Positions 1,557-25,170 of a stretch of DNA of 64,000 nt are shown here, one piece after another. Location of the stretch: NCBI GenBank assembly GCA_963696535.1, contig CAVOKP010000013.1, forward strand, positions 241,790 to 305,789, given 5' to 3'. Positions within the stretch are counted from its first letter, which is position 1; each line of letters begins with the position of its first letter. The stretch comes from an uncultured Bacteroidales bacterium. GTDB taxonomy: Bacteria; Bacteroidota; Bacteroidia; Bacteroidales; VadinHA17. The notes under the pieces were generated by a model. It was not told where the DNA came from, did not search any database, and was given only the letters and a program-made list of their open reading frames with translations. A program made the position numbers and the translations under genes.

Positions 1557-3035
1557 CTACAGATGATAAGTTCCTCTGTATTGGTAATCCATCAGTCTGT
1601 GGCTGCAGGCCTCCTTGTCATTTATAAATGTGTATGTTGCCGGATCCCATTTAAGCGGCCTCTTAAGTTCGTTTGCAATATTTCCGAGGCAGCAGGTAAT
1701 TGCAGTGCTGCATCCGACCTCGATCGATGCGATCGGTTTCTCACGCGAACGCACGGCATCGATGAAGTTCTGCATGTGAGGTGAACTGATCTCGAACTGA
1801 AGTCCTGCCTGAGTGGGTGCCGGACGGGCTTGTCCCTGTGCAGCGGCGCCCTGGCGTCCCTGTGTGGCAGCCTGGCGTCCCTGAGCAGGAGCGGCGGGTC
1901 TTTGTCCCTGCGGAGCTCCGGCCGGACGTTCTGCCCTTGGCTGCGGACGGGTTCCTGCAATTTCTGCCGGAATCAGCGAAGCATCAGAGCATGCGATATA
2001 TCCCCTTGCCACTTCGATCCATCCTTTTGTCCCGATGAATTTAATTCCCTGGGCGCCTGGATTATCCTCAAGATAAGGCTGTTCGGTCATTACAACGCCG
2101 GTCTTGTAAATATATGTCATGTATGGCTGGCCATTGTAGCCTTTCGGGATAATTTCGCTCGGGGCGGAACCATCCATTCCGATTGCAGCCTGTGCAATAT
2201 CGAACATATGGGCTCCCCAGTCAGCGGTGTATCCGTTCCCTGTCTCGAGATACCAGCGCCATGCGCCCCAGAGCGTCTCATTCTGGACGGGGTCGAGGGT
2301 AATCTGCGGAGCAAGGTCGGAATGATATTTTATATTATCATCATTGAGCGGACCGAGCCACAGGTTCCAGTTAAGGTTACCCGGAATAGGCATTTCTGGA
2401 AGGTCGAGAGGTTTGGGAGGATCACCAACCTTTGCATAAATCTTTTCAATGTGCCCGATTGCCCCTTTCTGAACAAGCTCTATTGCTTTCTGGAACTCCT
2501 TGCTTGAACGCTGCTGGCTCCCGACCTGGACGACCCGCTTGTTGTCATTTGCAACCCTTGTCATTACCAGGGCCTCCTTAATGGTATAGGAGAGAGGTTT
2601 CTGGACGTAAACATCCTTTCCGGCCTGGCAGGCATGAATTGTCATCAGTGCATGCCAGTGGTCGGGAGTCACAACTTCTACAACATCTATATCCTTGCGT
2701 TCGAGAAGCTGTTCGTACTGTTCATAGGTATCACAGCGGGGTGCGAGCCCCTTTGATTTCTGCCACTCCTCGACGGTTCTTTTAAACCTCTGCTGCTTGA
2801 TTGTGTCAACATCGCAACAGGCAATGACCTGCAGCCCCGGAGCACCTGCAAATCCCCTGAAATCGGAGAGAGCCTGACGTCCAAGACCTATTGTGCCCAT
2901 AAGCACCCGATCGCTTGGAGCAACGCGTATTCCGTTAATAACATAGCTCGGCAGGATGGTGAGACCCGTCAGTCCGATTGCTGACAGCCCCAGGAAATCA
3001 CGCCGGTTTAAACCTTTGGTAGTCTTTTCTTTCAT
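1557..3035 (-). CDS. Tat-exported Gfo/Idh/MocA family oxidoreductase with a low-complexity insertion
   Basis: Has a Tat signal (NRRDFLGLSAIG), a Rossmann N-terminal region (MGTIGLGRQA) and a Gfo/Idh/MocA-like core (VYVQKPL). A ~50 aa Q/G/A/P/R-rich segment interrupts the C-terminal domain. Confidence 0.75.
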   Translation of the reverse strand: MKEKTTKGLNRRDFLGLSAIGLTGLTILPSYVINGIRVAPSDRVLMGTIGLGRQALSDFRGFAGAPGLQVIACCDVDTIKQQRFKRTVEEWQKSKGLAPRCDTYEQYEQLLERKDIDVVEVVTPDHWHALMTIHACQAGKDVYVQKPLSYTIKEALVMTRVANDNKRVVQVGSQQRSSKEFQKAIELVQKGAIGHIEKIYAKVGDPPKPLDLPEMPIPGNLNWNLWLGPLNDDNIKYHSDLAPQITLDPVQNETLWGAWRWYLETGNGYTADWGAHMFDIAQAAIGMDGSAPSEIIPKGYNGQPYMTYIYKTGVVMTEQPYLEDNPGAQGIKFIGTKGWIEVARGYIACSDASLIPAEIAGTRPQPRAERPAGAPQGQRPAAPAQGRQAATQGRQGAAAQGQARPAPTQAGLQFEISSPHMQNFIDAVRSREKPIASIEVGCSTAITCCLGNIANELKRPLKWDPATYTFINDKEACSHRLMDYQYRGTYHL

Positions 3036-3123
3036 TGTAAAATATGGTTTAGGATTAATTGTCCAATAACAGGCTAAAAATAGGAAATACTTTAATTCGG
3101 GTGGACGGGAGCCTGGATATTTT

Positions 3124-3162
3124 CAAAAAAAATCCGGCTGTGAATCTTATCACTGGCCGGAT
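3124..3162 (-). terminator. candidate intrinsic terminator of the small secreted-protein gene
   Basis: Stem ATCCGGC (3132-3138) pairs with GCCGGAT (3156-3162). An A-run at 3124-3132 on the + strand gives a T-run on the - strand. Confidence 0.4.
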
Positions 3163-3185
3163 CCTTAAATCATCCGTAGCGGAGG

Positions 3186-3473
3186 CTATTTTTTAACAGG
3201 CGCCTTTGATCCGCAGGTTGCTGAACATGGTGCCACAGCTTCAGTGCTTTCTGTTTTTTTCTGGGCATCTGCCTGATGACCAGCACAGGTTGCAGGATCG
3301 CATGCACCTGCTTTTTCAGCAGCCTGCTGGCTTCCTGCTGCCTGACAAGGAGCTGTAACGGTTTCTGTTTTGGCTTTCTTTGGATCTTTCTTTGATCCTT
3401 CAGCGTTGACAAAAAGGATCACCACACATGCCATTATTAAAAGACTTCCGATGCTTATTAGTAGTTTCTTCAT
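3186..3473 (-). CDS. small secreted Cys/Ala/Lys-rich hypothetical protein
   Basis: Signal peptide MKKLLISIGSLLIMACVVILFVNA. The mature part has repeated APC...C..C motifs (APCQAAGS, ACDPATCAGH, APCSATCGS). Confidence 0.5.
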   Translation of the reverse strand: MKKLLISIGSLLIMACVVILFVNAEGSKKDPKKAKTETVTAPCQAAGSQQAAEKAGACDPATCAGHQADAQKKTESTEAVAPCSATCGSKAPVKK

Positions 3474-3601
3474 TTGTGAGTTTTTTAAAGTGAGACTTGC
3501 GATATTACTATTTTTTTTTGTATTTCACATTTATATGAACGGAAATTCATACAAATTATTTAATTTTCAAATGTTGAATCCTTAACTAACCTTATTTTGC
3601 A

Positions 3602-4375
3602 ATGAGGAAGATCCTGATCCCGTTTTTCTTTCTGTTAATATCCCTGACAGCATATCCTCAGTATTCAACACTTAATGCCCATTCCCACAATGATTATGAG
3701 AACATCCCGCCTTTTATGCTGGCATATAATAATCATTTCGGATCGATCGAGGCAGATATCTGGGCAGTAAACGGCGAATTATTTGTTTCGCATAATGAAA
3801 ATGACATAAATCCCTCGAGGACTCTTGATTCTCTTTATATTAATCCGATTGTCAGAATATTCAGGCTGAATGGTGGCAAAGCATGGAATGACAATCCGGG
3901 TACATACCAGCTAATGATCGATCTTAAAACTCCCGTTGATCCGACTCTTTCACTGCTTATAAAGAAGCTGGGCAATTATCCAGATGTTTTCAACCCGAGG
4001 ATAAATAAAAATGCAGTCAGGATAGTAATAACCGGAAACAGACCCGAACCAGCAAGGTTTAGGGATTATCCGTCATTTGTTTTTTTCGATGGCAATGTGG
4101 CACTGGAATACAGTAAGAAGCAACTGAGAAGAATCGCCCTTTACAGCGAAAATTTCAGGAACTATTCATCGTGGAACGGAGAAGGCGCAATTAAGGAAAA
4201 GGAAAAAGCCAGGCTGGAGGGTATTATTGATTCGGTGCATTCAGTTAAAAAGAAGATCAGGTTCTGGAACACCCCTGATAATGCTGACGCATGGAGATTA
4301 TTCATTGAAATGGGGATCGACTATATAAACACCGACCATATTGCAGGGCTCTCTGACTTTTTAACCAATCGTTGA
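3602..4375 (+). CDS. secreted PI-PLC-like / glycerophosphodiester phosphodiesterase-superfamily protein (AIM6-like)
   Basis: Has a signal peptide and the N-terminal catalytic motif AHSHNDYE, characteristic of PLC-like phosphodiesterase TIM barrels. Confidence 0.65.
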   Translation: MRKILIPFFFLLISLTAYPQYSTLNAHSHNDYENIPPFMLAYNNHFGSIEADIWAVNGELFVSHNENDINPSRTLDSLYINPIVRIFRLNGGKAWNDNPGTYQLMIDLKTPVDPTLSLLIKKLGNYPDVFNPRINKNAVRIVITGNRPEPARFRDYPSFVFFDGNVALEYSKKQLRRIALYSENFRNYSSWNGEGAIKEKEKARLEGIIDSVHSVKKKIRFWNTPDNADAWRLFIEMGIDYINTDHIAGLSDFLTNR

Positions 4376-4378
4376 AAT

Positions 4379-6187
4379 ATGAAGCAGTTTGAACTGATTG
4401 ACTGGATAGTATTCTTCACTTACGCCACTGTTATAGTCGGTCTTGGATTATGGGTCTCAAGAACAAAAAAAGGGCAGCAAAAAACCTCTCAGGACTATTT
4501 CCTGGCTAACCGGTCATTGCCATGGTGGGCAATCGGATCCACACTTCTCGCGGCAAATATCTCGGCCGAGCACTTTATAGCAATGTCAGGATCAGGCTAT
4601 GCCGTGGGACTTGCAATTGCAGCCTATGAATGGATAGCTGCAGCAGTTCTGATCCTTGTCGCCAAATATTTTCTTCCTGTATTCATTGAGAAGAAGATCT
4701 ATACAATGCCGCAGTTCCTTACCCAGCGTTATGATAAGAGAGTAAGCACAAGCCTTGCCGTTTTCTGGATCCTTGTCTACATCTTTATCAATATGACGGC
4801 AGTAATATACCTGGGAGCACTTGCAATGGAACGTATAATCGGATTGCCTCTTATTTACGGGGTCATCCTGTTTTCATTGTTTTCTGCCTTATACTCCCTG
4901 TGGGGAGGGATGAAGGCTGTTGCATGGACCGATGTTTTCAATGTGTTTGTCCTGATACTCGGCGGACTTGTCACAACTGCATTTGCACTTAATGCCCTGA
5001 GCGACGGGAATGGGATACTTGCAGGATTTTCAGAACTTCTGGAGAGGGCCCCTCAGAAATTCCATATGATAATTGAAAAGGGAACCGTATCGGTGCCTGA
5101 CGGTAAAGGCGGAATGAAGGATGCTTTCAATGATCTGCCGGGGCTTGGTGTTGTGATTGGATCGATGTGGCTTACCAATATCGGATTCTGGGGTTTCAAT
5201 CAGTTCATTATCCAGCGCGGGCTTGCAGGGAAATCGCTAAAGGAGGCCCAGCACGGCGTTGTATTTGCCGGGTACCTGAAACTGCTTGTCCCCCTCCTGG
5301 TTGTAATACCCGGGATCGCCGTTTTTGCACTCGGCGTAAAACTTGGAAAATCGGATGAAGCCTATCCATGGCTTATCGCCAATATTATTCCGGTGGGGAT
5401 CTCAGGTCTTTCGCTGGCTGCGATTGCCGCTGCGGCCGTGTCGTCGATAAGTTCCCTTGTTAACAGTACCTCGACGATTTTTACAATCGACATATACAAG
5501 AGCTATCTCAATAAAAACGCTTCGGAAAAACAGCTTGTGACAACAGGAAGGATAACGGCATTGATAGCTCTGGTGATCGCAACTGCTGTTGCTCCGCAGC
5601 TTAAGACCCTCGATCAGGCATACCAGTATATCCAGGAATATACCGGATATATCTATCCCGGAACGTTCCTGATATTCTTCTGCGGGCTCTTCTGGAGAAA
5701 GGCGTCTGCAAATGCTGCACTATGGACTGCGATCCTCACCATACCATTGGGGATACTGTTCAAAGTCATAAATCCGGAGATGCCTTTTATCCTGCGCATA
5801 GGTTATGTTTTCATTGTCCTCTCCTTTGTGATGATAGGTCTCAGCCTGATTGACAGAAATCATACAATTGAAAATGTTCATAATGCTGAACTCGCAAGGA
5901 AGAGAGTCTCTCTAGGGACAAGAATGATAGTATTTGCAGCTCTTGCCGGAATAACAATGGCTTTTTTCGCCGGGAAGTATAAAAACCTGGCGCTCGAAGC
6001 CGGATATGTGCTTGTTGCCGGATTTATCCTTCTGGGGTTGATTATTATCCTTAACAACACCCAGAAGAAAATGAATGAGAAGGGGATCATAATCAGGGAA
6101 GGGATTTTCAAAACCACCCCGGCGTTTAATATTGCAGCAATAGGTGTTTGCGGACTGCTGGCACTTCTTTATACGGTTTTCTGGTGA
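4379..6187 (+). CDS. sodium:solute symporter (SSS/SGLT family), probably the inositol transporter
   Basis: Polytopic 602 aa protein with the SSS N-terminal signature DYFLANRSLPWWAIGSTLLAANISAEHFIAMSG. The substrate assignment comes only from its position in the iol locus. Confidence 0.8.
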   Translation: MKQFELIDWIVFFTYATVIVGLGLWVSRTKKGQQKTSQDYFLANRSLPWWAIGSTLLAANISAEHFIAMSGSGYAVGLAIAAYEWIAAAVLILVAKYFLPVFIEKKIYTMPQFLTQRYDKRVSTSLAVFWILVYIFINMTAVIYLGALAMERIIGLPLIYGVILFSLFSALYSLWGGMKAVAWTDVFNVFVLILGGLVTTAFALNALSDGNGILAGFSELLERAPQKFHMIIEKGTVSVPDGKGGMKDAFNDLPGLGVVIGSMWLTNIGFWGFNQFIIQRGLAGKSLKEAQHGVVFAGYLKLLVPLLVVIPGIAVFALGVKLGKSDEAYPWLIANIIPVGISGLSLAAIAAAAVSSISSLVNSTSTIFTIDIYKSYLNKNASEKQLVTTGRITALIALVIATAVAPQLKTLDQAYQYIQEYTGYIYPGTFLIFFCGLFWRKASANAALWTAILTIPLGILFKVINPEMPFILRIGYVFIVLSFVMIGLSLIDRNHTIENVHNAELARKRVSLGTRMIVFAALAGITMAFFAGKYKNLALEAGYVLVAGFILLGLIIILNNTQKKMNEKGIIIREGIFKTTPAFNIAAIGVCGLLALLYTVFW

Positions 6188-6235
6188 TGAACCAGTAACG
6201 GGATATTCGGTTAATTGGTAGTAGGCAGTAGATGG

Positions 6236-6354
6236 GAAGAAACCCACCCCCGCCCCTCCCGGGAGGGGAGCCGGAAGGGACGGTCTTCTTGCTTCGGTCA
6301 GTAAACCAGTAACCAGCAACGAGCAACGAGGAACGAGGAACGAGCAACAATAAA
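6236..6354. repeat. GC-rich element followed by a degenerate heptamer array
   Basis: CCCACCCCCGCCCCTCCCGGGAGGGGAGCC resembles the reverse complement of 35100-35118. It is followed by eight 7-nt units: CAGTAAA CCAGTAA CCAGCAA CGAGCAA CGAGGAA CGAGGAA CGAGCAA CAATAAA (6299-6354). Confidence 0.7.
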
Positions 6355-6388
6355 ATAATTACAACAACCACTTCTTCAAAAGATTTCC

Positions 6389-7480
6389 ATGGAAACAGAT
6401 TCACAGCAAAAAGAAGCATACAAAAGTACTCTTCACAAAATGACGCAAACAACTCCGACTGTCCTTTGGAACGATTCCTGTTCCATTGAGGAGCTGACTA
6501 ACTCGATCGGTCACGGGGCTGTCGGAGCTACCTGCAACCCCGTGATCGTCCTGAATGTACTTAAGCAGGAGTGGAATATATGGAAAGAGAGGATCCTGCA
6601 GATAATCATGGAGAATCCCTTTGCAACGGAGGACGAAATAGCCTGGAATCTTATCGGCGAGATGTCGGTGAAAGCAGCAGCACTGCTTCGGCCTGTTTTT
6701 GACAGGGAGAACGGAAGGAACGGACGGCTGTCGATCCAGACCGATCCGAGGTTATACAGGGATCCAAAAAGGATCCTTGCCCAGGCTGTTCAGTTCAGTG
6801 AACTCGCTCCAAACATGATCGTGAAAATTCCTGTCACAAAGGCCGGGGTGGAGGCCATAGAAGAGGCAACCTACAGGGGCATAAGCATCAATGCAACAGT
6901 AAGTTTCACCCTGCCTCAGGCCGTTGCGGTGGCGGAAGCCGTGGAACGCGGGCTCACACGGCGGGAAAGGGAGGGAAAGGATATAAACACCATGGGTCCC
7001 GTATGCACGCTGATGGTTGGCAGGCTCGACGACTGGCTTAAGGTTGTGACCGAAAAAGAAAATATAATTGCCAACCCTGAGGCTGTCGACTGGGCAGGCG
7101 TTGCAGTAATGAAGAAAGCCTACAGGATTTATAACGAACGGGGATATCGTTTGAGGCTTTTAAGCGCGGCATTCAGGCATCACCGTCACTGGTCGGAATT
7201 CATCGGGGGGAACGTGGTCATCTCGCCTCCCTGGCAGTGGCAGATGCGGTACAATGCTTCGGATGTGACAGTGGAGAACAGAATGGATAAACCTGTTGAT
7301 CAGGCAATAATAACCGAACTTGAGAAGAAATTTACTGACTTCCGGCGCGCTTACGATGAGAAAGGGATGACCGTAGAAGAATTCGACGGATTCGGAGCAA
7401 CTGTCAGAACATTGCGCCAGTTTTCACAGGCTACAACGGACCTTATTTTAAAAATCAGGGATATAATGTTGATTAGATAA
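6389..7480 (+). CDS. transaldolase / fructose-6-phosphate-aldolase family protein
   Basis: Motifs LWNDS, GATCNPVIV and the Schiff-base lysine context MIVKIPVTKAG are typical of class I transaldolase-family enzymes. An alternative start is at 6440. Confidence 0.75.
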   Translation: METDSQQKEAYKSTLHKMTQTTPTVLWNDSCSIEELTNSIGHGAVGATCNPVIVLNVLKQEWNIWKERILQIIMENPFATEDEIAWNLIGEMSVKAAALLRPVFDRENGRNGRLSIQTDPRLYRDPKRILAQAVQFSELAPNMIVKIPVTKAGVEAIEEATYRGISINATVSFTLPQAVAVAEAVERGLTRREREGKDINTMGPVCTLMVGRLDDWLKVVTEKENIIANPEAVDWAGVAVMKKAYRIYNERGYRLRLLSAAFRHHRHWSEFIGGNVVISPPWQWQMRYNASDVTVENRMDKPVDQAIITELEKKFTDFRRAYDEKGMTVEEFDGFGATVRTLRQFSQATTDLILKIRDIMLIR

Positions 7481-7522
7481 TGTTGAAATAATGTTGAAAT
7501 AATGTTGAAATGGTGTTGAAAT
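7463..7522. repeat. 11-nt tandem repeat (ATAATGTTGAA x4 plus degenerate copies)
   Basis: Reads directly as ATAATGTTGAA ATAATGTTGAA ATAATGTTGAA ATGGTGTTGAA. It overlaps the stop codon of the transaldolase gene. Confidence 0.8.
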
Positions 7523-7536
7523 AAAGATAAGATCAA

Positions 7537-8430
7537 GTGATAAGAGATAAAAAATGCCCATGGCTGGCAAAATCATACCCGGATGAGGAGAAATACCAGA
7601 ACATCACTGCCGGGGAGGCAGGATGGAAGTATCTGAATTTCACGGCGAGGACCATGAAATCAGGACAGAAGTGGATTGGGGGGACCGGCGACAGTGAGTA
7701 CCTGTTTGTACTGCTCGGAGGTAATTTCTCGGCGGAAACCTCTGCCGGTACCTGGAAGACCTGGAACGGCAGGAAAGATGTGTTCAGCGGACTGCCCCAT
7801 GCTCTCTATCTGCCTCCAAATACTGAATATGAAATCTCGCCTGCAGGTGAAATCCTTGATATTGCATGCGGTTGGTGCGCCACCGAAAAGAGATATCCTG
7901 AAAGGCTTATATCACCTGCCGATGTGGTGCAAATGGGAATTGAATTAAGGGGCGGCGATAATGCCAGCAGGCAGATAAACAGTATATTGCCTCCCGGATC
8001 TGAGAGCAGCCGGCTGGTTTGCGTGGAGGTATATACTCCTTCCGGAAACTGGAGCTCGTTCCCTGCACATAAGCATGATACCAGAAAAACCGATCCTTCC
8101 ACCGGCAAGCTTCTTGAAGCAAGCCTTGAAGAGATCTATTTCTATAAAATTGACAAGCCGCAGGGATTTGCAATCCAGAAGATTTATAACGACGACCGCA
8201 GTCTGGATGAGATTGCAGAGGCGCATTGCAACGACCTGGTGATGGTTCCCCAGGGTTACCATCCTGTTGTTGCAGGACATGGATACAATGTTTATTACCT
8301 GAATTTCCTTGCGGGCAGCGACCAGAGCCTTGTCAGTACGGATGATCCGGACCACAAATGGATCTACGGGACATGGAGGGAGATGGATTCGCGGCTTCCG
8401 ATGGTAACAATTGAAATGAATTGCAGATAA
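7537..8430 (+). CDS. iolB: 5-deoxy-glucuronate isomerase
   Basis: Cupin-type IolB-like sequence (FPAHKHDT, VPQGYHPV) located next to iolD. A GTG start is inferred because there is no in-frame ATG nearby. Confidence 0.8.
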   Translation: MIRDKKCPWLAKSYPDEEKYQNITAGEAGWKYLNFTARTMKSGQKWIGGTGDSEYLFVLLGGNFSAETSAGTWKTWNGRKDVFSGLPHALYLPPNTEYEISPAGEILDIACGWCATEKRYPERLISPADVVQMGIELRGGDNASRQINSILPPGSESSRLVCVEVYTPSGNWSSFPAHKHDTRKTDPSTGKLLEASLEEIYFYKIDKPQGFAIQKIYNDDRSLDEIAEAHCNDLVMVPQGYHPVVAGHGYNVYYLNFLAGSDQSLVSTDDPDHKWIYGTWREMDSRLPMVTIEMNCR

Positions 8431-8440
8431 TCATTTACAC

Positions 8441-8509
8441 CATTGCGGATTGCGGATTAACGAATTCGGATTTCCAATCCGAAATCACAAATTCGAAATC
8501 CGAAATTTC
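8441..8509. repeat. 7-nt periodic element (GCGGATT / TCGGATT words), inverted homolog of 14030-14100
   Basis: Parses as TTGCGGA TTGCGGA TTAACGA ATTCGGA TTTCCAA TCCGAAA TCACAAA TTCGAAA TCCGAAA. Its reverse complement aligns with 14030-14100. Confidence 0.75.
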
Positions 8510-8555
8510 AATAAGTGCAACATAATAGGATTAACTTTATGCAAGGTTTATTTAC

Positions 8556-10415
8556 ATGAAAACACTCAGGTTAACTGCCGGACAGGCAATAGTAAGGTTT
8601 CTGAAAAACCAGTATGCTGAACGCGACGGCGTTGAAAACCGGTTTTTTGCAGGATGCCTGGGAATATTTGGTCACGGTATTGTCGCCGGAGTTGGAGAGG
8701 GCTTGATGGAAAATCCTGATTTCAGGTACTATATGACCAGGAACGAACAGGCTTCGGTGCATATAGCCGCTGCTTATGCGAAGATGAAGAACCGCATGGC
8801 AACTTTCGCATGCATCTCATCAATCGGACCCGGTGCCACGAATATGGTAACTGGTGCAGCATGTGCAACCATCAACAGGCTTCCGGTATTGATTATACCC
8901 GGTGATATTTTTGTACGCCGGAATGTCGCCCCGGTGCTTCAGCAGCTCGAATCCCCATTTTCACAGGACGTTTCGGTAAATGATTGTTTCAAGCCTGTTT
9001 CAAAATACTGGGACAGGATAAGCAGGCCTGAGCAGCTCATCTTTACTCTGCCCGAAGTTATGAGAGTGCTCACTTCACCTGCCGATACCGGGGCAGTAAC
9101 CCTTGCCCTGCCGCAGGATGTTCAGGCGGAGGCTTTTGATTTTCCTGAAGAATTTTTTCAAAAGAGAATCTGGAAGATCGCACGGCCGAGGCCCGATTCA
9201 GATTCATTAAGGGAAGCGTCAGTCCTTATCAGGAATTCGAGGAAACCGGTTATTATAGCAGGGGGAGGAATAATTTACAGCGAGTCGGCGGAAATCCTGA
9301 AAAGATTTGTTGAACAGACCGGAATTCCCGTTGCCGAGACATTTGCAGGGAAAGGATCGCTGCCTTATGATCACCCTTCAAATCTTGGAGCTGTCGGTGC
9401 CACCGGAACTCCCGGTGCCAATGAGTTTACCTCCGGAGCTGACCTGATAATCGGGATCGGCACCCGATACAGCGATTTTACGACAGCATCAAAGACCGCA
9501 TTTCAGAACCCTGATGTCAGATTCATAAATATTAATGTCGCTGCATTCGACTCATATAAAAACTCTGCATTGCCAGTTACGGCCGATGCAAAAGTGTGCC
9601 TTGAAGAGCTTGCAATGCTGCTTGGTGATTACAGGGTGGCAGAGGAGTACTCAAATCGTGCAGCCATTGCAAACAAATCATGGGATGAGAAGGTAAGTGA
9701 GATATGCAGGGAATCGGGAGCAATTCCTGTCTCCCAGGCCGAAGTGATCGGAGCTGTCAGCGAGTGTGCCGGCCCGTCCGATGTTGTACTGTGCGCTGCC
9801 GGAAGCCTTCCCGGCGATCTCCATAAGCTATGGCGAACTACCGATCCCAAAGGTTTTCACCTCGAATACGGATATTCGACGATGGGATACGAATGTGCAG
9901 CAGGAATTGGCGCCAGAATGGCATGTCCCGACCGTGAGATATTCGTAATGGTAGGAGACGGGAATTACCTGATGATGAACAGCGAAATTGTAACAGCAGT
10001 GCAGGAAGGGATAAAAGTCATAATCATCCTGCTTAACAACAATGGATTCGGAAGCATAGGCGCGCTCTCGGAATCGATCGGATCGCAGCGTTTCGGGACA
10101 AAATACCGTTACCGTGATCAGAAAACCGGCCAGCTGACAGGCGAAACCCTTCCGGTGAATTTTGCTCAAAATGCCCGAAGCCTTGGAGCATATGTAATTG
10201 AAGCCACGGATATAAAATCATTGAAAAATGCGATTGAAGAGGCCAAAGCACAGACAATGACAACGGTAGTTACAATTGAAACGGATCTCTATAAGGGTGT
10301 CCCTGGTTATGCATGGTGGGAAGTGCCGGTTGCTGAAGTGTCTGAAATAGACACAGTTAATGAGGCTTATAAGATTTATTTAAATAATAAAAAGAAACAA
10401 AGGTATTTGCTGTAA
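8556..10415 (+). CDS. iolD: 3D-(3,5/4)-trihydroxycyclohexane-1,2-dione acylhydrolase (TPP-dependent)
   Basis: A 619 aa ThDP enzyme. The N-terminus LTAGQAIVRFLKNQY...FGHGIVAGVGEGL and the GDGNYLM ThDP motif match the IolD pattern. Confidence 0.85.
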   Translation: MKTLRLTAGQAIVRFLKNQYAERDGVENRFFAGCLGIFGHGIVAGVGEGLMENPDFRYYMTRNEQASVHIAAAYAKMKNRMATFACISSIGPGATNMVTGAACATINRLPVLIIPGDIFVRRNVAPVLQQLESPFSQDVSVNDCFKPVSKYWDRISRPEQLIFTLPEVMRVLTSPADTGAVTLALPQDVQAEAFDFPEEFFQKRIWKIARPRPDSDSLREASVLIRNSRKPVIIAGGGIIYSESAEILKRFVEQTGIPVAETFAGKGSLPYDHPSNLGAVGATGTPGANEFTSGADLIIGIGTRYSDFTTASKTAFQNPDVRFININVAAFDSYKNSALPVTADAKVCLEELAMLLGDYRVAEEYSNRAAIANKSWDEKVSEICRESGAIPVSQAEVIGAVSECAGPSDVVLCAAGSLPGDLHKLWRTTDPKGFHLEYGYSTMGYECAAGIGARMACPDREIFVMVGDGNYLMMNSEIVTAVQEGIKVIIILLNNNGFGSIGALSESIGSQRFGTKYRYRDQKTGQLTGETLPVNFAQNARSLGAYVIEATDIKSLKNAIEEAKAQTMTTVVTIETDLYKGVPGYAWWEVPVAEVSEIDTVNEAYKIYLNNKKKQRYLL

Positions 10416-10422
10416 CATTTAC

Positions 10423-10480
10423 ACTTTGCATCTTTGCGTCTTTGTGGCAAAAAGATTAGCCACTAAGGCGCTAAGGCGCC
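10423..10480. repeat. 8-nt periodic arrays (CTTTGCNT x3; CTAAGGCG x2)
   Basis: CTTTG recurs at 10424, 10432 and 10440. CTAAGGCG occurs at 10463 and 10471. Confidence 0.7.
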
Positions 10481-10531
10481 AAGAATTACTGAATTATTAA
10501 AATTAATCTAGCAAAAACATTGTGTAAAAGC

Positions 10532-12004
10532 ATGACTGTAGTTCATAAAAATTATATCAACGGGGAATGGGTTGAAAGCAGAAGCGTTGCATTTCTTGAT
10601 GTCGTAAATCCATCCGACGGCACTGTTCTTTCAAAGGTTCCTGCCGGATCGGGTGAAGATGTGGCGTTTGCAGCAGAGAAAGCTTACCATGCATATTTGT
10701 CGTGGAAGGAGGTTCCGGCGACCCAGCGCATCCAGTATCTGTTTAAGATGAAGCAGATACTCGAGAAAGACGCTGATGAGATTTCAGTGATCTGTACAAA
10801 GGAGAGCGGAAAAACTTTTGCCGAATCGAAGGCTGAGATCGTTAGGGCAGTTGAAAACATGGAGGTTGCCTGCGGGATTCCAAAGCTGCTTCAAAGCGAA
10901 TTCTCTGAAGATATCACAAGGGGAATCGATGAATTTGTGATCCGTCAGCCGGTCGGCACGGGAGCTTGCATCGCCCCTTTCAACTTCCCTGTAATGATAG
11001 CATTCTGGTTCATGCCGTATGCAATTGCCTGCGGAAATACATATATTGTAAAGCCATCGGAGAAAGTGCCGGGTACAATGACCCGTATTTTCGAGCTCTT
11101 TGAGGAACTGAATCTTCCCCCGGGTGTTCTGAATCTTGTACACGGCGGAAAAGAGACGGTTGATGCAATCCTTAATCATCCGTCCATCTCTGCAATAAGT
11201 TTTGTGGGCTCAACCAATGTGGCAAAATATATTTATCAGACAGGTGTTGCAAACGGAAAGCGAGTTCAGGCACAGGGAGGCGCCAAGAATCCGGTTGTGG
11301 TGATGTCTGACGCAGATCCCGATACAACGGTTAAAATCATTGCCGACAGCGCATTCGGATGTGCCGGACAGCGATGTCTTGCTGCGTCTCTTGCGATACT
11401 CGTGGGCGAGGCGGGAAAAGTCTTCACTGAGAAAATTGTTGCTGCAGCCCGCGGGAAAAGGACAGGGGACGGCCTGGAGGAGGGAGTTGAAATGGGGCCT
11501 GTTATCACAAGTCAGAGCATGGTCCGCATCAATGGCCTCATAAAAAGTGGCCTGGATGATGGTGCAACAATGCTTCTCGACGGACGCGGTCTTAAGGTGC
11601 CCGGACACAAAAATGGGAATTTCATTGGTCCTGTAATCCTTGGGAATGTAAGTCCTGAAAGTGAGATCTATAACACTGAGGTCTTCGGGCCTGTACTGTG
11701 CATTGTAAATACTGAAACCCTCGACGATGCCATTGAGCTGATCAACAGGAGCCGGTATGGCAACTCAGCCTGCATATTTACACGAAACGGTGCAGCAGCC
11801 AGGAAATTCAGACACGAGGTTCTTGCCGGTAATATAGGTATTAACATTGGCATCGCTGCTCCAATGGCTTTCTTTCCATTCAGCGGATGGAAGGAGAGCT
11901 TCTTCGGGGATCTGCACGGACAATCAAACCATGCAGTTGAATTCTACACACAGACGAAAGTGGTTATTGAACGCTGGCATGATGAATGGACAAGAAAATT
12001 CTAA
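10532..12004 (+). CDS. mmsA: CoA-acylating methylmalonate/malonate-semialdehyde dehydrogenase
   Basis: Aldehyde dehydrogenase fold with catalytic Cys context FGCAGQRCLA and an MmsA/IolA-like N-terminus NYINGEWVES. The ATG at 10532 is preferred over the TTG at 10520. Confidence 0.85.
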   Translation: MTVVHKNYINGEWVESRSVAFLDVVNPSDGTVLSKVPAGSGEDVAFAAEKAYHAYLSWKEVPATQRIQYLFKMKQILEKDADEISVICTKESGKTFAESKAEIVRAVENMEVACGIPKLLQSEFSEDITRGIDEFVIRQPVGTGACIAPFNFPVMIAFWFMPYAIACGNTYIVKPSEKVPGTMTRIFELFEELNLPPGVLNLVHGGKETVDAILNHPSISAISFVGSTNVAKYIYQTGVANGKRVQAQGGAKNPVVVMSDADPDTTVKIIADSAFGCAGQRCLAASLAILVGEAGKVFTEKIVAAARGKRTGDGLEEGVEMGPVITSQSMVRINGLIKSGLDDGATMLLDGRGLKVPGHKNGNFIGPVILGNVSPESEIYNTEVFGPVLCIVNTETLDDAIELINRSRYGNSACIFTRNGAAARKFRHEVLAGNIGINIGIAAPMAFFPFSGWKESFFGDLHGQSNHAVEFYTQTKVVIERWHDEWTRKF

Positions 12005-12015
12005 AACCTGACGAT

Positions 12016-12915
12016 ATGATAAAAATTGCAAATGCCCCATGTTCCTGGGGTGTGCTCGAATTCGAACTTGAAGGCAAAGCCGCTGGCTTTGAACAGGTAC
12101 TTGATGAGATAAGGGAGACAGGATACCAGGGCACCGAACTGGGCGACTGGGGATTTATGCCTGTCGATCCAAAGGAGCTCAGAAAAGAGCTTGACAAACG
12201 GTCCCTCGCCATGGTCGGAGCTTTTGTCCCTGTCTTTCTGAAAGACGGGACAAAACATAAAGCCGGGGCTGAAACTGCCGTAAAAACTGCAAGACTGATG
12301 GCTGACGCCGGCTATCCGGATGCTTTTATAGTACTTGCCGACGAGAATGGCAGCATTAAGGAGAGGACAGAAAATGCAGGCAGGGTAAAACCATCTATGG
12401 GACTCGCCGATGCTGAGTGGAAGGTATTTGCAGAAGGCGCTGATCTTGTTGCAGGTGAGGTTAAAGCCAGAACAGGCCTGCGGACGGTGTTTCATCACCA
12501 CTGCGCCGGTTATGTAGAAACACCTGCTGAAATAGATAAACTGCTGTCCCTTACCGATCCTGCACTTGTCGGACTGGTCCTCGACATGGGCCACTATATG
12601 TTCGGCGGAGGTGATCCGCTTCATGCCCTGAAAAAACATAAAGACCGGATCTGGCATATCCATTTCAAGGATTGTCATCCGGAAACGGTTGAAAGATCAA
12701 GGAAAGAAGGCTGGGACTATTTTAAATCGGTCGCCGGCGGAGTGTTTTGCGAACTGGGAAAGGGAGCGGTCGATTTCAATGCAATCGTGAAGGAACTTCA
12801 TAATCAGAATTATTCAGGATGGATAGTCGTCGAGCAGGATGTGCTCCCCGGGATGGGAAACCCGAAAGTATGCGCACAGCGAAACAGGGAATATATTAAA
12901 TCGCTGGGACTATGA
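12016..12915 (+). CDS. iolE: xylose-isomerase-like TIM-barrel protein, probable inosose dehydratase
   Basis: Has PF01261-like features (HIHFKD, WIVVEQD) and lies between mmsA and iolG. The ATG at 12016 is preferred over 11986, which overlaps mmsA by 19 nt. Confidence 0.6.
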   Translation: MIKIANAPCSWGVLEFELEGKAAGFEQVLDEIRETGYQGTELGDWGFMPVDPKELRKELDKRSLAMVGAFVPVFLKDGTKHKAGAETAVKTARLMADAGYPDAFIVLADENGSIKERTENAGRVKPSMGLADAEWKVFAEGADLVAGEVKARTGLRTVFHHHCAGYVETPAEIDKLLSLTDPALVGLVLDMGHYMFGGGDPLHALKKHKDRIWHIHFKDCHPETVERSRKEGWDYFKSVAGGVFCELGKGAVDFNAIVKELHNQNYSGWIVVEQDVLPGMGNPKVCAQRNREYIKSLGL

Positions 12916-12920
12916 GAAAA

Positions 12921-12976
12921 TCAGGCGTCAGGCGTCAGGCGTCAGGTGACAGGCCTCATGCCCCCAGCCCCCGGCA
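12921..12976. repeat. heptamer array (TCAGGCG x3, then degenerate units)
   Basis: Reads TCAGGCG TCAGGCG TCAGGCG TCAGGTG ACAGGCC TCATGCC CCCAGCC CCCGGCA, starting right after the iolE-like stop codon. Confidence 0.8.
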
Positions 12977-13015
12977 ACTTAATCAAACATCAGGCATAAC
13001 CTTAAAAAGAAAAAT

Positions 13016-14029
13016 ATGAAAAAACTAAAACTTGGAGTAATCGGTACCGGTAGGATCGGCAAGGTTCATATAGCAACGCTTGTCCAGAATGTTCCGCAGG
13101 CCGACGTAGTGGCAATTGCAGATATCAATCTAAACAGTGCCAGCGAGGTTGCAAAATCGTTTGGAATAACCTCTGTCTTCACCAGTTACATGGACGTCCT
13201 TAATCATCCCGAAGTTGAGGCCGTTGCAATCTGTTCCCCGACCGACACCCATGCCAGGTACATTGTTGATGCGGCACATGCAGGCAAGCATATCTTTTGC
13301 GAGAAACCCGTGGATCTTTCGCTCGATGTCATAAAGGGGGCAATTGAAGCTGTTGAGAAAGCCGGCGTAAAGCTGATGGTCGGTTTCAATCGACGGTTCG
13401 ATCCGAACTTCTTTAAAATAAGGCAGCTTGTTGCCGATGGGAAGATAGGGGAGCCACATATACTTAAAATCACATCGCGTGACCCCGCTCCACCGCCTGC
13501 TGAGTACAGCGCTACATCAGGGGGAATGTTCATGGATATGACAATTCATGATTTTGACATGGCAAGGTATATTACCGGCAGTGAAGTGACGGAGGTTTAT
13601 GCAAAGTCGGCAGTCCTTGTCGATCCTGCCATCGGCAGGGCGGGAGATGTTGATACAGCAGTAATAACACTGAGCTTTGCAAACGGGGCGATAGGGGTTA
13701 TCGACAACAGCCGCAAGGCGGTATACGGGTATGACCAGCGTGTCGAAATATTCGGGTCGAAGGGGATGGTGTGTGCCGATAATAATTTTCCTGACAATCA
13801 CCGCTATTTTGCAGATGACGGCGTTCATGGTCCGCTTCCCCTTAACTTCTTTATGGACAGGTACCTTGAGGCATATGCAAACGAGATGAAGATCTTTTGC
13901 GATGCGGTGATAAATGACAGGGAACTTCCGGTATCAGGTACCGACGGACTTATGTCGGTTGCAATTGCACTGGCCGCGAAAAAATCACACCTTGAAAACA
14001 GACCGGTGAAGCTGAGTGAAATTATTTGA
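13016..14029 (+). CDS. iolG: inositol 2-dehydrogenase (Gfo/Idh/MocA)
   Basis: N-terminal Rossmann motif LKLGVIGTGRIGKVH, the EKP motif (FCEKPV), a 337 aa length and the iol context. Confidence 0.75.
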   Translation: MKKLKLGVIGTGRIGKVHIATLVQNVPQADVVAIADINLNSASEVAKSFGITSVFTSYMDVLNHPEVEAVAICSPTDTHARYIVDAAHAGKHIFCEKPVDLSLDVIKGAIEAVEKAGVKLMVGFNRRFDPNFFKIRQLVADGKIGEPHILKITSRDPAPPPAEYSATSGGMFMDMTIHDFDMARYITGSEVTEVYAKSAVLVDPAIGRAGDVDTAVITLSFANGAIGVIDNSRKAVYGYDQRVEIFGSKGMVCADNNFPDNHRYFADDGVHGPLPLNFFMDRYLEAYANEMKIFCDAVINDRELPVSGTDGLMSVAIALAAKKSHLENRPVKLSEII

Positions 14030-14143
14030 GAATTTCGGACTTCGGATTTGTGATTTCGGATTTCAAATCCGCAATCCACATTCCGCAATCCGAAATAATT
14101 TCATTCCGCAATCCGCAATCAAAAATCCGCAATCCGCAATCAA
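14030..14143. repeat. 7-nt periodic element (TTCGGAT / AATCCGC words)
   Basis: Reads TTTCGGA CTTCGGA TTTGTGA TTTCGGA TTTCAAA TCCGCAA ... AATCCGC AATCCGC. The first ~70 nt are an inverted homolog of 8441-8509. Confidence 0.75.
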
Positions 14144-14172
14144 TATTACACAGTTTTAAAGATTTATAAAAT

Positions 14173-14886
14173 ATGCAAAAACTCAATTATCTGTTTTTAT
14201 TTCTTCTGCTTCCACTTTGTACCGGAGCCCAGGAACCAGTTTCTCCGGTTGCCACAATAAAGAAATGCAGTGATTTTACAGTGACAGGAGATGGGAGTTC
14301 AGCCGCCTGGAACAGGACCGAATGGATGAATCTTACTCATCAGGGCTCAGGGTCGACCATTTACGAAACAAAAGTCAAGGCGCTCTATTCACCTGCCGGT
14401 ATCTATTTTCTTTTCAGGTGCCAGGATGCAAAGCTGACAACCACTATGCAGGCCGACAATATGAATCTCTGGGAGGAAGATGTTGTGGAGGTTTTTCTGT
14501 GGACATCCGAGGATTTCCCTGTCTATTTTGAATATGAGATCTCTCCGATGGATTTTGAACTGCCCATAATGGTGCCGAATTACAAGGGCAGGTTTCTTGG
14601 CTGGCTTCCCTGGAAATACGGCGGTGACAGGAGGGTAATTCATGCCACAAGCGCCGAGGGCGGTGAAAAGAAAAGCGGTGGCGCTGTAACAGCGTGGACT
14701 GCGGAATTCTTTATCCCGTTCAAGCTGCTGAATCCTCTGCCACTGGTTCCTCCGTCATCAGGAACAAAATGGAGGGCAAACATGTACAGGGTTGATTATG
14801 ACAATGGCTCATCGAGTTTTGCCTGGCAGAAGACCAGCAGATCGTTCCATGAGTATAACAGCTTTGGGACGTTTATCTTTGAGTAG
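14173..14886 (+). CDS. secreted carbohydrate-binding family 9-like (DOMON-like) protein
   Basis: Signal peptide plus the CBM9-like core ALYSPAGIYFLFRCQD...LWEEDVVEVFL...YFEYEISP. Confidence 0.6.
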   Translation: MQKLNYLFLFLLLPLCTGAQEPVSPVATIKKCSDFTVTGDGSSAAWNRTEWMNLTHQGSGSTIYETKVKALYSPAGIYFLFRCQDAKLTTTMQADNMNLWEEDVVEVFLWTSEDFPVYFEYEISPMDFELPIMVPNYKGRFLGWLPWKYGGDRRVIHATSAEGGEKKSGGAVTAWTAEFFIPFKLLNPLPLVPPSSGTKWRANMYRVDYDNGSSSFAWQKTSRSFHEYNSFGTFIFE

Positions 14887-14903
14887 CCGGCACGGATGGT
14901 TTT

Positions 14904-16271: not shown

Positions 16272-16533
16272 CCTGGTATTCAGCCATTAAACAAACAAAG
16301 AGCAGGAATGTTCTCTACTCCACAGTTTTTATGATAGTTACAACACCAAAGTTCCAAATAATCAATGTTATAAAATTACAAAAGATTCTGCTAACAATCA
16401 TAATACTGAATCCGGAATTAGCGGAAGGGAACGGAGGAGAAACACGAAAAATTATGAAAATCCGGAGAAACACCTTTATTAGAGCCTCTTTCCTGCAATA
16501 TACATCAGTGCCATGCCGTTTATATTAAGAATT

Positions 16534-16728
16534 ATGAAGGCAAAAAGAAATATCAGGGAGAAGGTTAAAACCAAGTTTGTTAAGATTAACAATTCAACCT
16601 GGATTGAGACCGATGTTTCGATTCCTGATGAAGTTGCCAGAATGCATTATTATCAGAAGGCAAATCATACACAACCTCCCACATATATAGGCCAGCTCAG
16701 GGATTATATTTCAAACATCAATATCTGA
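16534..16728 (+). CDS. small basic hypothetical protein
   Basis: The ORF is followed directly by a good terminator. MKAKRN is preferred as the start. No family was recognised. Confidence 0.3.
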   Translation: MKAKRNIREKVKTKFVKINNSTWIETDVSIPDEVARMHYYQKANHTQPPTYIGQLRDYISNINI

Positions 16729-16745
16729 TCAGGATAGGCAGTCTG

Positions 16746-16773
16746 CCTCCGGGATCGTTTCCGGAGGTTTTTT
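16746..16773 (+). terminator. intrinsic terminator
   Basis: Stem CCTCCGG (16746-16752) pairs with CCGGAGG (16761-16767), followed by TTTTTT (16768-16773). Confidence 0.7.
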
Positions 16774-16856
16774 ATTGGAAAATATTTCCATGACATTAAT
16801 AAAACATTGACTTTTGTGAATGCAAAGACTAAATTTGTATTGACAATCGCGTAAAT

Positions 16857-16988
16857 ATGGCCCAAAAGATATTCAACGAGTATCCCAAGCGAAAAACAGT
16901 CGCTTTCTGGATCGCAATAACCATAGGTTTGGTTTTGTTTGCCTGCCTGATGTTCCTGCTGGTCAATTACACCATGGCCCTGTTCTAG
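16857..16988 (+). CDS. candidate 43-aa single-pass membrane peptide
   Basis: My own translation gives MAQKIFNEYPKRKTVAFWIAITIGLVLFACLMFLLVNYTMALF. A TAAATTTG (TAnnTTTG) box lies at 16830-16837. The ORF is absent from the supplied track because it is under 60 aa. Confidence 0.3.
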   Translation: MAQKIFNEYPKRKTVAFWIAITIGLVLFACLMFLLVNYTMALF

Positions 16989-17152
16989 TGCCGGATTGGT
17001 TATATTAATGATATTCAGCTAATTACTGTAGATCCAGAATGCGGATTCTGTTCCATAGTTAATAAAATCTTATTTCAATTAAAAGTTTTATTTTTAAGCA
17101 ACCGGTTAACTCTAGTCACTCTAAGTACTCTGATTTTAATAACTATTTTACC

Positions 17153-25126: not shown

Positions 25127-25170
25127 ATAGAGGGTATTTAGGTTACAATTCCTGAACAAAAATTGTACCA

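Follow-up and report, generated by a model that had tools for sequence, protein, structure and literature searches.

We analyzed a 64-kb stretch of DNA (the window) using its ORF list and family profile searches and identified a single compact row of eight genes on the + strand, at positions 3602-14029. Intergenic gaps within the row did not exceed 201 nt, and the iolA and iolE genes overlapped by 19 nt. The first gene (3602..4375) encodes a GDPD_2-like phosphodiesterase of 257 aa (PF13653, 40.9 bits) with a signal peptide (N-terminus MRKILIPFFFLLISLTAYPQ), which probably acts outside the cytoplasm and liberates inositol there from glycerophosphoinositol-type compounds. Homologues of this protein were encoded upstream in four of the loci used for comparison (L003, L005, L006 and L009); the Thermus iol cluster is likewise flanked by a GDPD gene. 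The second gene (4379..6187) encodes an SSF sodium:solute symporter (PF00474, 236 bits; TIGR00813, 348 bits) that is presumed to be the inositol importer. It is followed by the gene of a divergent, long-type transaldolase-family protein of 363 aa (6389..7480; PF00923, TAL_FSA, 131 bits), referred to here as TAL. An SSF gene adjoined TAL in 11 of the 13 Bacteroidota loci (8 upstream and 3 downstream) and was two genes away from it in L008.

The remaining five genes of the row matched inositol catabolic families. IolB, the 5-deoxy-glucuronate isomerase that makes 5-dehydro-2-deoxy-D-gluconate (DKG), is encoded at 7537..8430 (TIGR04378, 308 bits, cutoff 205), the TPP-dependent ring-opening hydrolase IolD at 8556..10415 (TIGR04377, 893 bits, cutoff 715), and the CoA-acylating (methyl)malonate-semialdehyde dehydrogenase IolA/MmsA at 10520..12004 (TIGR01722, 575 bits, cutoff 448). 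These are followed by an IolE-like inosose dehydratase with an AP_endonuc_2 TIM barrel (11986..12915) and the myo-inositol 2-dehydrogenase IolG (13016..14029; TIGR04380, 468 bits, cutoff 355). The IolE-like protein scored 223 bits with TIGR04379, under the cutoff of 290; this model was its best match, aligned over the full length (model positions 2-288 of 290), and the protein was 65-90% identical to its counterparts in other Bacteroidota TAL loci. A secreted CBM9-like protein with a signal peptide (14173..14886, + strand; PF06452, 29.6 bits) may be encoded by the last gene of the operon, and such a gene occupied the equivalent position in L006, L027 and L081. The family searches thus confirmed the gene inventory given in an earlier note, which had listed a transporter, iolG, an iolE-like gene, iolD, iolB and mmsA/iolA with the TAL gene upstream of iolB. 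As far as sequence can indicate, the locus is best explained as a working myo-inositol catabolic operon. Like the canonical pathway of B. subtilis and Salmonella, it provides transport, IolG, an IolE-like protein, IolD, IolB and IolA, with equivalog-level scores except for IolE, and it presumably shares with that pathway the intermediates up to DKG and malonate semialdehyde as an end product. Unlike the canonical pathway, it carries a transaldolase-family gene, and IolC (PfkB) and IolJ (class II aldolase) are not encoded in the window.

The absence of iolC and iolJ from the locus had been pointed out in the earlier note, and two kinds of search agreed with it. Pfam scans covered 40 of the window's larger ORFs, all ten in or beside the locus among them, and detected neither a PfkB kinase nor a class II aldolase or DUF2090 domain, and six-frame tblastn of the 64-kb window with IolC, IolJ and IolC-DUF2090 references gave no match at E<=1e-3. 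IolC and IolC-DUF2090 also had zero matches at this threshold across 1.43 Mb of TAL loci (81 loci), in which we found no PfkB signature, DhaK or DhaL. The only class II aldolase in the 81 loci was a shortened copy in L008, ending at model position 210 of 277 and lying directly upstream of iolB-TAL, which looks like a decaying iolJ. In a large survey iolC is a core gene of iol clusters (PMC9430895), and all four canonical iol clusters that we inspected carried iolC together with an aldolase. TAL is the sole aldol-type enzyme in the window cluster.

We then compared 80 species-level genomes carrying a TAL 68-87% identical to that of the window. IolB or IolD was encoded within 10 kb of TAL in 48 of the 80 genomes, where random placement would give ~0.1, and the median distance was 3.7 kb. 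This proximity was observed in 31 of 43 Acidobacteriota loci and in 5 of 24 loci from Spirochaetota, Chloroflexota and other groups. Co-occurrence with iolB/iolD across Bacteroidota, which the earlier note had raised as a check, was found in 12 of 13 loci. The association of TAL with iol genes is far beyond chance. In the clade of the window the neighbours of TAL were always IolB, IolD and IolA, and in the window operon, which retains IolG, E, D, B and A, TAL lies between the transporter and iolB.

TAL itself fell far short of the cutoffs of all transaldolase and FSA equivalog models. Its best NCBIfam match was PRK03343 (122 bits, cutoff 367), and the cutoffs of the full-length transaldolase models range from 234 to 712; with the FSA model it scored 40 bits against a cutoff of 246. 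In both sequence and fold it came closest to the long transaldolases of Corynebacterium and Neisseria (3R5E and 3CLM; PRK03343, tal_mycobact; 72.7 bits), and an AlphaFold model of moderate confidence (pLDDT 72) resembled the C. glutamicum Tal 3R5E in fold (TM 0.73). TAL belongs to the 360-aa long transaldolase branch and not to the 220-aa FSA branch. An identical protein (P0001) comes from a contig of ~583 kb. The active-site residues are D29, N50, Q117, K146, T170, M209, R212 and R263. The Asp, Asn, Lys, Thr and both Arg of the long transaldolases are conserved, and these include the catalytic Asp, the Schiff-base Lys (K146) and the two phosphate/anion-binding Arg. On the other hand, TAL was only 17-22% identical to the long transaldolases, from which it differs by Glu to Gln, Phe to Met and Ser226 to Ala changes; its second Arg is also followed by an additional His-rich motif, RHHRHW. 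Where transaldolases have the catalytic Glu96 and FSA has Gln59, TAL has Gln117. Met209 stands at the switch position, which is Phe178 in transaldolases and Tyr131 in FSA; all 81 close relatives and 33 of the 48 representatives of the family have Met there. The roles of Q59, T109 and Y131 in FSA have been described (PMC13259622). With Gln117 and no compensating Tyr, the acid/base role of the Glu is left without an evident proton-transfer partner. E. coli FSA (1L6W) shares with TAL the superfamily, the Schiff-base Lys and the Gln at the Tal Glu96 position, but it is a 220-aa decamer with a Tyr131 proton shuttle, whereas TAL is of the long Tal type with Met.

We consider it likely that TAL takes over from IolC and IolJ by cleaving DKG, whichever the mode of cleavage. 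This role, proposed in the earlier note, was strongly supported by the synteny in Bacteroidota, Acidobacteriota and some Spirochaetota and by the lack of IolC and DUF2090 at the TAL loci. A strict replacement is too strong a statement, since an iol cluster of Clavibacter pCI3 has both iolC and a DeoC-type aldolase and lies next to a 52% identical TAL whose active-site signature is the same. According to the predicted route, the SSF symporter would bring inositol in, and IolG, IolE, IolD and IolB would convert it to DKG. The ketone of unphosphorylated DKG would then form a Schiff base on Lys146, and the C3-C4 bond would be broken to yield malonate semialdehyde. Because IolA is retained, malonate semialdehyde must still be made; its oxidation by IolA to acetyl-CoA and CO2 would pull the TAL reaction forward. 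The dihydroxyacetone (DHA) unit bound to TAL would most likely be passed to glyceraldehyde-3-phosphate (GAP), forming fructose-6-phosphate (F6P). The net reaction would be DKG + GAP to F6P + malonate semialdehyde, and a pathway-specific kinase would be unnecessary. That DKG is the substrate, that its C3 unit is transferred and that GAP accepts it are all inferred, and we advance the transfer to GAP only tentatively. Fischer projections indicate that DKG is configured like D-fructose (3S,4R) and that its hydroxymethyl ketone is free, as Tal/FSA donors need, while in DKG-6-P the phosphate would be on the DHA end and unfit for the donor site.

Two known systems offer partial parallels. In one, IolJ is replaced within iol clusters by an unrelated class I (Schiff-base) DKG-6-P aldolase, the DUF2090 part of an IolC-DUF2090 fusion (Price et al. 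2022; PMC9007349). That enzyme is of the DeoC/LacD family and needs phosphorylation by IolC, whereas the window candidate has the Tal/FSA fold and the kinase and DUF2090 are absent. The other, the sulfo-TAL pathway, is a precedent in which a single transaldolase supplants the kinase and aldolase of sulfo-EMP (PMC7491151). As predicted for TAL, the ketose on which this enzyme acts bears an anionic tail but no phosphate, and the enzyme passes the DHA unit to GAP and yields F6P and a C3 acid aldehyde. SF-TAL (BmSF-TAL, PDB 8BC3), however, is of the ~220-aa small subfamily and matched TAL only remotely (26.5 bits), and its substrate is a sulfonate while that predicted for TAL is a carboxylate.

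The earlier note had proposed direct cleavage of unphosphorylated DKG with release of free DHA. The unphosphorylated form of DKG suits the chemistry, and the synteny and absence evidence applies equally to a TAL that acts like FSA and yields free DHA and malonate semialdehyde, with a DHA/glycerol kinase encoded elsewhere. Gln117, at the position of FSA Gln59 and not of Glu96, is consistent with such a lyase, and E-to-Q changes are among the engineered transaldolase-to-aldolase conversions in the PDB (4RZ5, 4RZ6 and 4XZ9). The hydrophobic Met209 in place of Tyr131, however, argues against DHA release of the FSA type, as do the long-branch membership of TAL with its low FSA score and the lack of DhaK/DhaL at all 81 loci. 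Release is therefore not favoured and appears somewhat unlikely; passing the DHA unit on to GAP is no less probable.

It seems quite improbable that TAL is a plain transaldolase of the pentose-phosphate pathway (S7P + GAP to E4P + F6P and the reverse) that only accompanies the iol genes, while genes elsewhere supply IolC to phosphorylate DKG and an aldolase, perhaps the class II FBA of housekeeping metabolism, to cleave it. Database annotation does name TAL a "transaldolase", a 51% identical homologue adjoins RpiB and Rpe, the surroundings of a 43% homologue look like housekeeping genes, and the Clavibacter TAL occurs together with iolC. The absence of IolC was established over the 64-kb window and the related loci, and the rest of the genome may encode iolC; the survey cited above often found the fourth core gene outside the cluster (in 810 of 1,024 three-gene iol clusters; PMC9430895). 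An ordinary transaldolase, however, would not be expected to score 122 bits against cutoffs of 234-712 or to have Gln for the catalytic Glu. The canonical inositol pathway does not involve such an enzyme, yet TAL is found inside iol operons in three phyla, and IolC was missing from 81 of 81 loci.

Members of the family outside inositol contexts, including the one beside RpiB and Rpe, share the Gln117/Met209 signature, which therefore does not specify DKG; no alignment column split the TALs of IolB/IolD loci from those of other loci. Some TAL loci in Anaerolineae and Spirochaetota encode IolN (NF041098, 546 and 301 bits) and an IolM-like dehydrogenase without IolB/IolD, like the IolG-IolM-IolN-IolO route of Thermotoga maritima, and the TAL family therefore accompanies this second inositol route too. 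The product reported for the IolM/IolN route does not have the stereochemistry of a Tal donor. The window differs in having IolE/IolD/IolB and no IolM or IolN. The least probable reading is that TAL acts in inositol metabolism on another free ketose, such as a 2-keto-hexuronate (5-keto-gluconate, fructuronate or tagaturonate type) or the product of another inositol isomer, with the DKG step solved otherwise: the indistinguishable TAL active sites in IolN/IolM-like loci, an AP_endonuc_2-TAL fusion (P0127) and the aldehyde dehydrogenase and SDR neighbours of TAL in Bryobacterales are in its favour, but the constant IolB, IolD and IolA neighbours in the window's clade speak against it, no pathway intermediate other than DKG has the donor motif that is needed, and no other cluster product supplies the malonate semialdehyde needed by IolA.

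Cleavage of DKG by TAL thus stands as the preferred reading. In the literature searched we found no description of a TAL-based, kinase-free ending of the inositol pathway. The recurrence of the arrangement in several phyla points to an undescribed kinase-free completion of the myo-inositol pathway.

The inositol locus of the window (3602-14029, plus strand) consists of a single row of genes, all on the same strand, with intergenic gaps of at most about 200 nt and with iolA and iolE overlapping. The first gene of the operon (3602-4375) encodes a secreted GDPD_2-like protein by Pfam and is followed by an SSF sodium:solute symporter (Pfam/NCBIfam) and by a 363-aa transaldolase-family (TAL_FSA; PF00923) protein, here called TAL, at 6389-7480. 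NCBIfam scans placed IolB (308 bits, cutoff 205), IolD (893 bits, cutoff 715), IolG (468 bits, cutoff 355) and IolA, the CoA-acylating methylmalonate/malonate-semialdehyde dehydrogenase (575 bits, cutoff 448), all above the equivalog or subfamily cutoffs of the canonical iol cluster. An IolE-like TIM-barrel protein had TIGR04379 as its full-length best match at 223 bits, below the cutoff of 290, and a CBM9-like secreted protein (14173-14886) follows iolG. The earlier note had listed a myo-inositol catabolic locus with a transaldolase-family gene and no iolC or iolJ, and this gene content proved correct since the Pfam and NCBIfam scans agreed with a six-frame tblastn of the window, in which IolC, IolJ and DUF2090 queries found no match; the GDPD-like first gene was absent from its description. 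With a secreted phosphodiesterase of this type as its first gene, the operon may in fact be directed at glycerophosphoinositol or at lipids of inositol. The Thermus iol cluster (L084) is likewise flanked by a GDPD gene. Sigma-70 promoters and terminators predicted in 2900-17200 were as numerous as in shuffled controls, a result that carries no information here since Bacteroidota promoters differ.

Other genes of the window were noted as well. Upstream of the operon, 1557-3035 (minus strand) encodes a divergent GFO/IDH/MocA oxidoreductase of 492 aa, which has a twin-arginine signal and weakly matched a BT_2158-like glycoside 3-dehydrogenase. Together with a 3-keto-disaccharide-hydrolase-family protein (17153-17899, plus strand), it hints at a periplasmic glycoside 3-oxidation system beside the inositol operon. 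Two proteins of eukaryote-like type, a 455-aa ankyrin-repeat protein (14904-16271) and a 439-aa serpin (23852-25171), are encoded on the minus strand.

The enzymes missing from the operon are IolC, the PfkB-family kinase of 5-dehydro-2-deoxy-D-gluconate (DKG), and a DKG-6-P aldolase, of which neither the class II (IolJ) nor the DUF2090 type was found in the window. Pfam analysis assigned none of the 40 larger window ORFs that were scanned to the PfkB kinase, class II aldolase or DUF2090 families. Reference IolC, IolJ and IolC-DUF2090 queries were drawn from the annotated clusters of Bacillus, Thermus and a Rhizobium plasmid, and none of them matched the window by six-frame tblastn at E<=1e-3. 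In a wider search over 1.43 Mb of sequence, made up of the window and 81 related loci, the three reference IolCs, including the IolC-DUF2090 fusion, again had no match at E<=1e-3, and neither DhaK nor DhaL was found; the PfkB signature was absent from the ORFs of the 81 loci. The sole class II aldolase match in these loci was a 214-aa fructose-bisphosphate-aldolase-like ORF of a Prolixibacteraceae MAG (JABGRN010000087; L008:5630-6274), which lies directly upstream of iolB-TAL, ends at position 210 of the 277 positions of the Pfam model and has no iolC near it. This truncated ORF may be a relic or decaying iolJ left after replacement. Clustering of the neighbouring ORFs of TAL loci followed by Pfam analysis showed that the frequent clusters were regulators, transporters and dehydrogenases, with no kinase or aldolase family among them. 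All four canonical clusters that we inspected (Bacillus mycoides, Thermus thermophilus, Rhizobium and Clavibacter) carried iolC and an aldolase inside the cluster, and iolC was one of four core cluster genes in a survey of 7,384 iol-positive species (PMC9430895). DUF2090, the known alternative to IolJ, is fused to IolC, the kinase still being required (PMC9007349). The iol cluster of the window has the pattern of a sulfo-TAL-type bypass, with a Tal-family enzyme present and the pathway kinase and aldolase absent.

We compared TAL with family models and solved structures. TAL matched PF00923 with 131.2 bits (cutoff 27; model positions 1-236 of 285), and its best NCBIfam match, PRK03343, reached 121.7 bits where the cutoff is 367. 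The scores for tal_mycobact (82.9 bits, cutoff 233.75), talAB (57, cutoff 396) and the fructose-6-phosphate aldolase (FSA) model TIGR00875 (40.1 bits, cutoff 245.95, residues 122-184 only) were also below the cutoffs, and its 363 aa exceed the roughly 220-aa architecture of the small-subfamily FSA. The closest solved structure by sequence was the C. glutamicum transaldolase 3R5E (72.7 bits). A Foldseek search of the PDB with an AF2 model of TAL (pLDDT 72, pTM 0.74) returned transaldolases for all of the top 50 hits, the best being 3R5E with a TM of 0.73 and 22% identity. TAL is a member of the Transaldolase/FSA superfamily, a class I aldolase TIM barrel with a transaldolase-type fold.

For residue mapping, E. 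coli TalB and FSA, numbered by exact matches to 1UCW and 1L6W, respectively, were aligned with TAL and 48 family representatives. The Schiff-base lysine on strand beta-4 (TalB Lys132) corresponded to K146, and Asp17, Thr33, Asn35, Thr156, Arg181 and Arg228 of TalB corresponded to D29, T48, N50, T170, R212 and R263. Since the Schiff-base lysine and its partner residues align with those of TalB, the covalent machinery of TAL is kept; K146, D29, N50 and T170 were invariant in the 81 close relatives, as were 121 of the 363 TAL residues overall. The classical transaldolase pair of Glu and Phe was not found: TAL has Q117 in place of the general acid/base Glu96 (Gln59 in FSA) and M209 at the switch position of Phe178 (Tyr131 in FSA). 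The catalytic water network Gln59-Thr109-Tyr131 described for FSA (PMC13259622) is only partial, Gln117 and Thr170 being present and Tyr being replaced by Met209. TAL thus has neither of the two acid/base solutions, the Tal Glu being Gln and the FSA Tyr being Met, and it lies outside the classical transaldolase and FSA equivalog families because the defining residues tested were absent and the scores fell below the cutoffs. At the phosphate site R212 and R263 are retained while Ser226 of TalB is replaced by Ala261, and the two arginines could bind phosphate or carboxylate. A His-rich motif, RHHRHW, follows R263, the second anion-binding Arg, with H265 and H267 invariant, and Tyr322 was invariant family-wide, down to 32% identity.

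Read from its keto end, DKG is CH2OH-CO-CHOH-CHOH-CH2-COO-, and we derived from Fischer projections that it has the D-fructose (3S,4R) configuration, which is consistent with the homology of IolJ to FBP aldolase. Seen in this way, DKG has precisely the motif that Tal and FSA enzymes require of a donor. Since the operon keeps IolA, malonate semialdehyde must still be formed, and no aldol-type enzyme other than TAL is encoded there. Given this chemistry of an unphosphorylated donor, the retention of IolA and the place of TAL as the only aldol-type enzyme, we consider it probable from the gene content that TAL cleaves DKG in place of both IolC and IolJ, be it by transfer of the C3 unit or by its release. 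Unphosphorylated DKG would be cleaved by TAL, with malonate semialdehyde passing to IolA, and the C3 unit would be handed to GAP to give F6P, the net reaction being DKG + GAP -> F6P + malonate semialdehyde. As far as DKG the route would follow the canonical iol pathway, and from there on it is predicted to work like sulfo-TAL. We propose the transfer to GAP by analogy, as a plausible step held at rather less than even confidence. It is preferred because of the long-Tal ancestry of TAL, the hydrophobic residue (Met) that occupies the switch position and the two retained anion-binding Arg residues, and because no DHA kinase was found in the 81 loci and the sulfofructose transaldolase pathway provides an exact precedent for the transfer mode (PMC7491151).

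The earlier note had proposed that TAL cleaves unphosphorylated DKG directly, releasing free dihydroxyacetone (DHA) in the manner of FSA. The derived donor motif fits an unphosphorylated substrate. Release of free DHA could occur since TAL has the FSA-like Gln at the Glu96 position, but we regard it as unlikely, the long-Tal ancestry, Met209 and the lack of a DHA kinase in the 81 loci all standing against it. In DKG-6-P the hydroxymethyl group of the DHA unit is phosphorylated, like C1 of fructose-1,6-bisphosphate, and Tal and FSA enzymes do not accept such donors. Action of TAL on DKG-6-P, replacing IolJ only, was rejected on this ground, and since DKG-6-P is an implausible Tal/FSA donor, TAL, if it acts in the pathway, would use unphosphorylated DKG and bypass IolC. 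Retro-aldol ring-opening of scyllo-inosose was rejected as IolE, IolD and IolB are all retained.

Close relatives of TAL number in the thousands; in the best 120 clusters the identity was 78% or more and the length about 362 aa. When one genome was scanned for each GTDB species, at least 568 genomes encoded a TAL relative. Neighbourhoods were counted for the best 80 loci of these (TAL identity 68-87%), which came from Bacteroidales, Rikenellaceae, Prolixibacteraceae, Acidobacteriota including Bryobacterales, Spirochaetota, Anaerolineae and Victivallales. Of the 80 loci, 48 encoded IolB or IolD no more than 10 kb from TAL, at a median distance of 3.7 kb, as compared to about 0.1 loci expected under random placement, and 59 had some inositol-pathway marker. 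The earlier note had suggested looking at this co-occurrence across Bacteroidota, where it was seen in 12 of 13 loci; the figures were 31 of 43 for Acidobacteriota and 5 of 24 for the remaining phyla. The order in Bacteroidota was essentially that of the window (SSF-TAL-IolB-IolD-IolA-IolE-IolG), whereas Acidobacteriota had a different but equally conserved order (IolE-permease-IolG-TAL-DegT-IolG2-LacI) with IolD, IolB and IolA nearby. In 17 acidobacterial iol clusters (e.g. L055:2770-4068 and L022) a DegT/DnrJ/EryC1-type aminotransferase lay directly 3' of TAL, accompanied by a second IolG-like dehydrogenase, which suggests the handling of amino-cyclitols such as scyllo-inosamine. Among the TAL-family proteins, P0156 (TAL + IolB) and P0211 (TAL + Zn-ADH) had partial domains only; these were rejected as Rosetta-stone fusions and kept solely as evidence of adjacency because they resemble frameshift-merged neighbours. 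P0127 (655 aa), a full-length AP_endonuc_2-TAL fusion, looks real.

An NJ tree revealed TAL subclades from Spirochaetota and Anaerolineae without IolB or IolD. Five of these loci (L013:508-2695, L078:5827-8908, L020, L033 and L034) carried Thermotoga-type inositol genes, with IolN, the 3-dehydro-scyllo-inosose hydrolase, scoring 546 and 301 bits (cutoff 245). IolN was accompanied by IolM-like Zn-dehydrogenases and by IolO-like or hydroxypyruvate-isomerase-like TIM barrels, and DUF6282 and AP_endonuc_2 proteins were also encoded. Since TAL loci without IolB or IolD hold IolN- and IolM-like genes, the TAL clade accompanies both inositol routes, IolE/D/B and IolM/N. The product reported for IolN is 5-keto-L-gluconate. 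We derived a (3R,4S) configuration for this compound, one that does not suit a Tal donor, and TAL on the IolN route would need a further epimerisation or a different stereochemistry of hydrolysis.

TAL and IolC are not strictly exclusive because both occur on plasmid pCI3 of Clavibacter michiganensis subsp. insidiosus (L087; NZ_CP021037.1, 30838-31962). The TAL of pCI3 is 52% identical and has the same Gln/Met signature. Its neighbours are a gene for a GntR regulator and a canonical iol cluster, which includes iolC, a gene for a DeoC-type aldolase and an mmsA that looks truncated; in the Clavibacter genome paper the TAL gene is no more than listed. This cultured organism provides a counter-example to strict replacement and is tractable for genetics. 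Beyond the close relatives, a family set of 361 representatives (E<=1e-30) also showed the signature in non-inositol settings. Signature-bearing homologues adjoined RpiB and Rpe (P0123), ppk and ppx (P0142), an SDR or GFO oxidoreductase, or a second TAL with Lar_N and a 2-hydroxyacid dehydrogenase. A 34% identical homologue on plasmid p1 of Shinella sp. H4-D48 (L088; NZ_CP093338.1, 66653-67873) lies inside an acetoin-dehydrogenase-like cluster, between the E1 and E2/E3 genes, with a class II aldolase, TIM and phosphatases alongside. Since relatives in non-inositol contexts share it, the Gln/Met signature is a family trait and no proof of DKG specificity. No alignment column separated the TALs of IolB/IolD loci from those of loci without them, so no DKG-specific residue can be named.

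A full-text search of openly available papers found none that connects a transaldolase with DKG or with the catabolism of inositol. The arrangement appears to be new in the literature searched, all of its support coming from comparative genomics. Tentatively, and with less confidence than for the transfer step itself, we suggest TAL as the founding member of a long-transaldolase subfamily that is widespread (at least 568 species-level genomes in at least five phyla) and would act on the unphosphorylated keto-sugar acids formed when the inositol ring is opened. Such a subfamily would provide a kinase-free, transaldolase-dependent ending of inositol catabolism, to F6P and malonate semialdehyde, would accompany both IolE/D/B and IolM/N, and would use a Gln/Met acid-base arrangement, perhaps with the family-invariant Tyr322, unlike Tal and FSA. 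The arrangement is widespread, and the claim for TAL can be tested directly on a single recombinant protein and bears on the prediction of pathways. If it is true, biocatalysis would gain a Tal/FSA-fold enzyme with unusual catalytic residues for a carboxylated, unphosphorylated donor. A second natural kinase/aldolase pair would also have been replaced by one transaldolase, joining sulfo-TAL, which would suggest that evolution has a general shortcut of this kind for sugars whose tails are anionic. In soils, peat and guts, the inositol released from phytate and from inositol lipids is a major source of carbon. If the claim holds, pathway predictors such as GapMind and searches of the IolCatGC type would give wrong calls on inositol use in Bacteroidales, Acidobacteriota and Spirochaetota.
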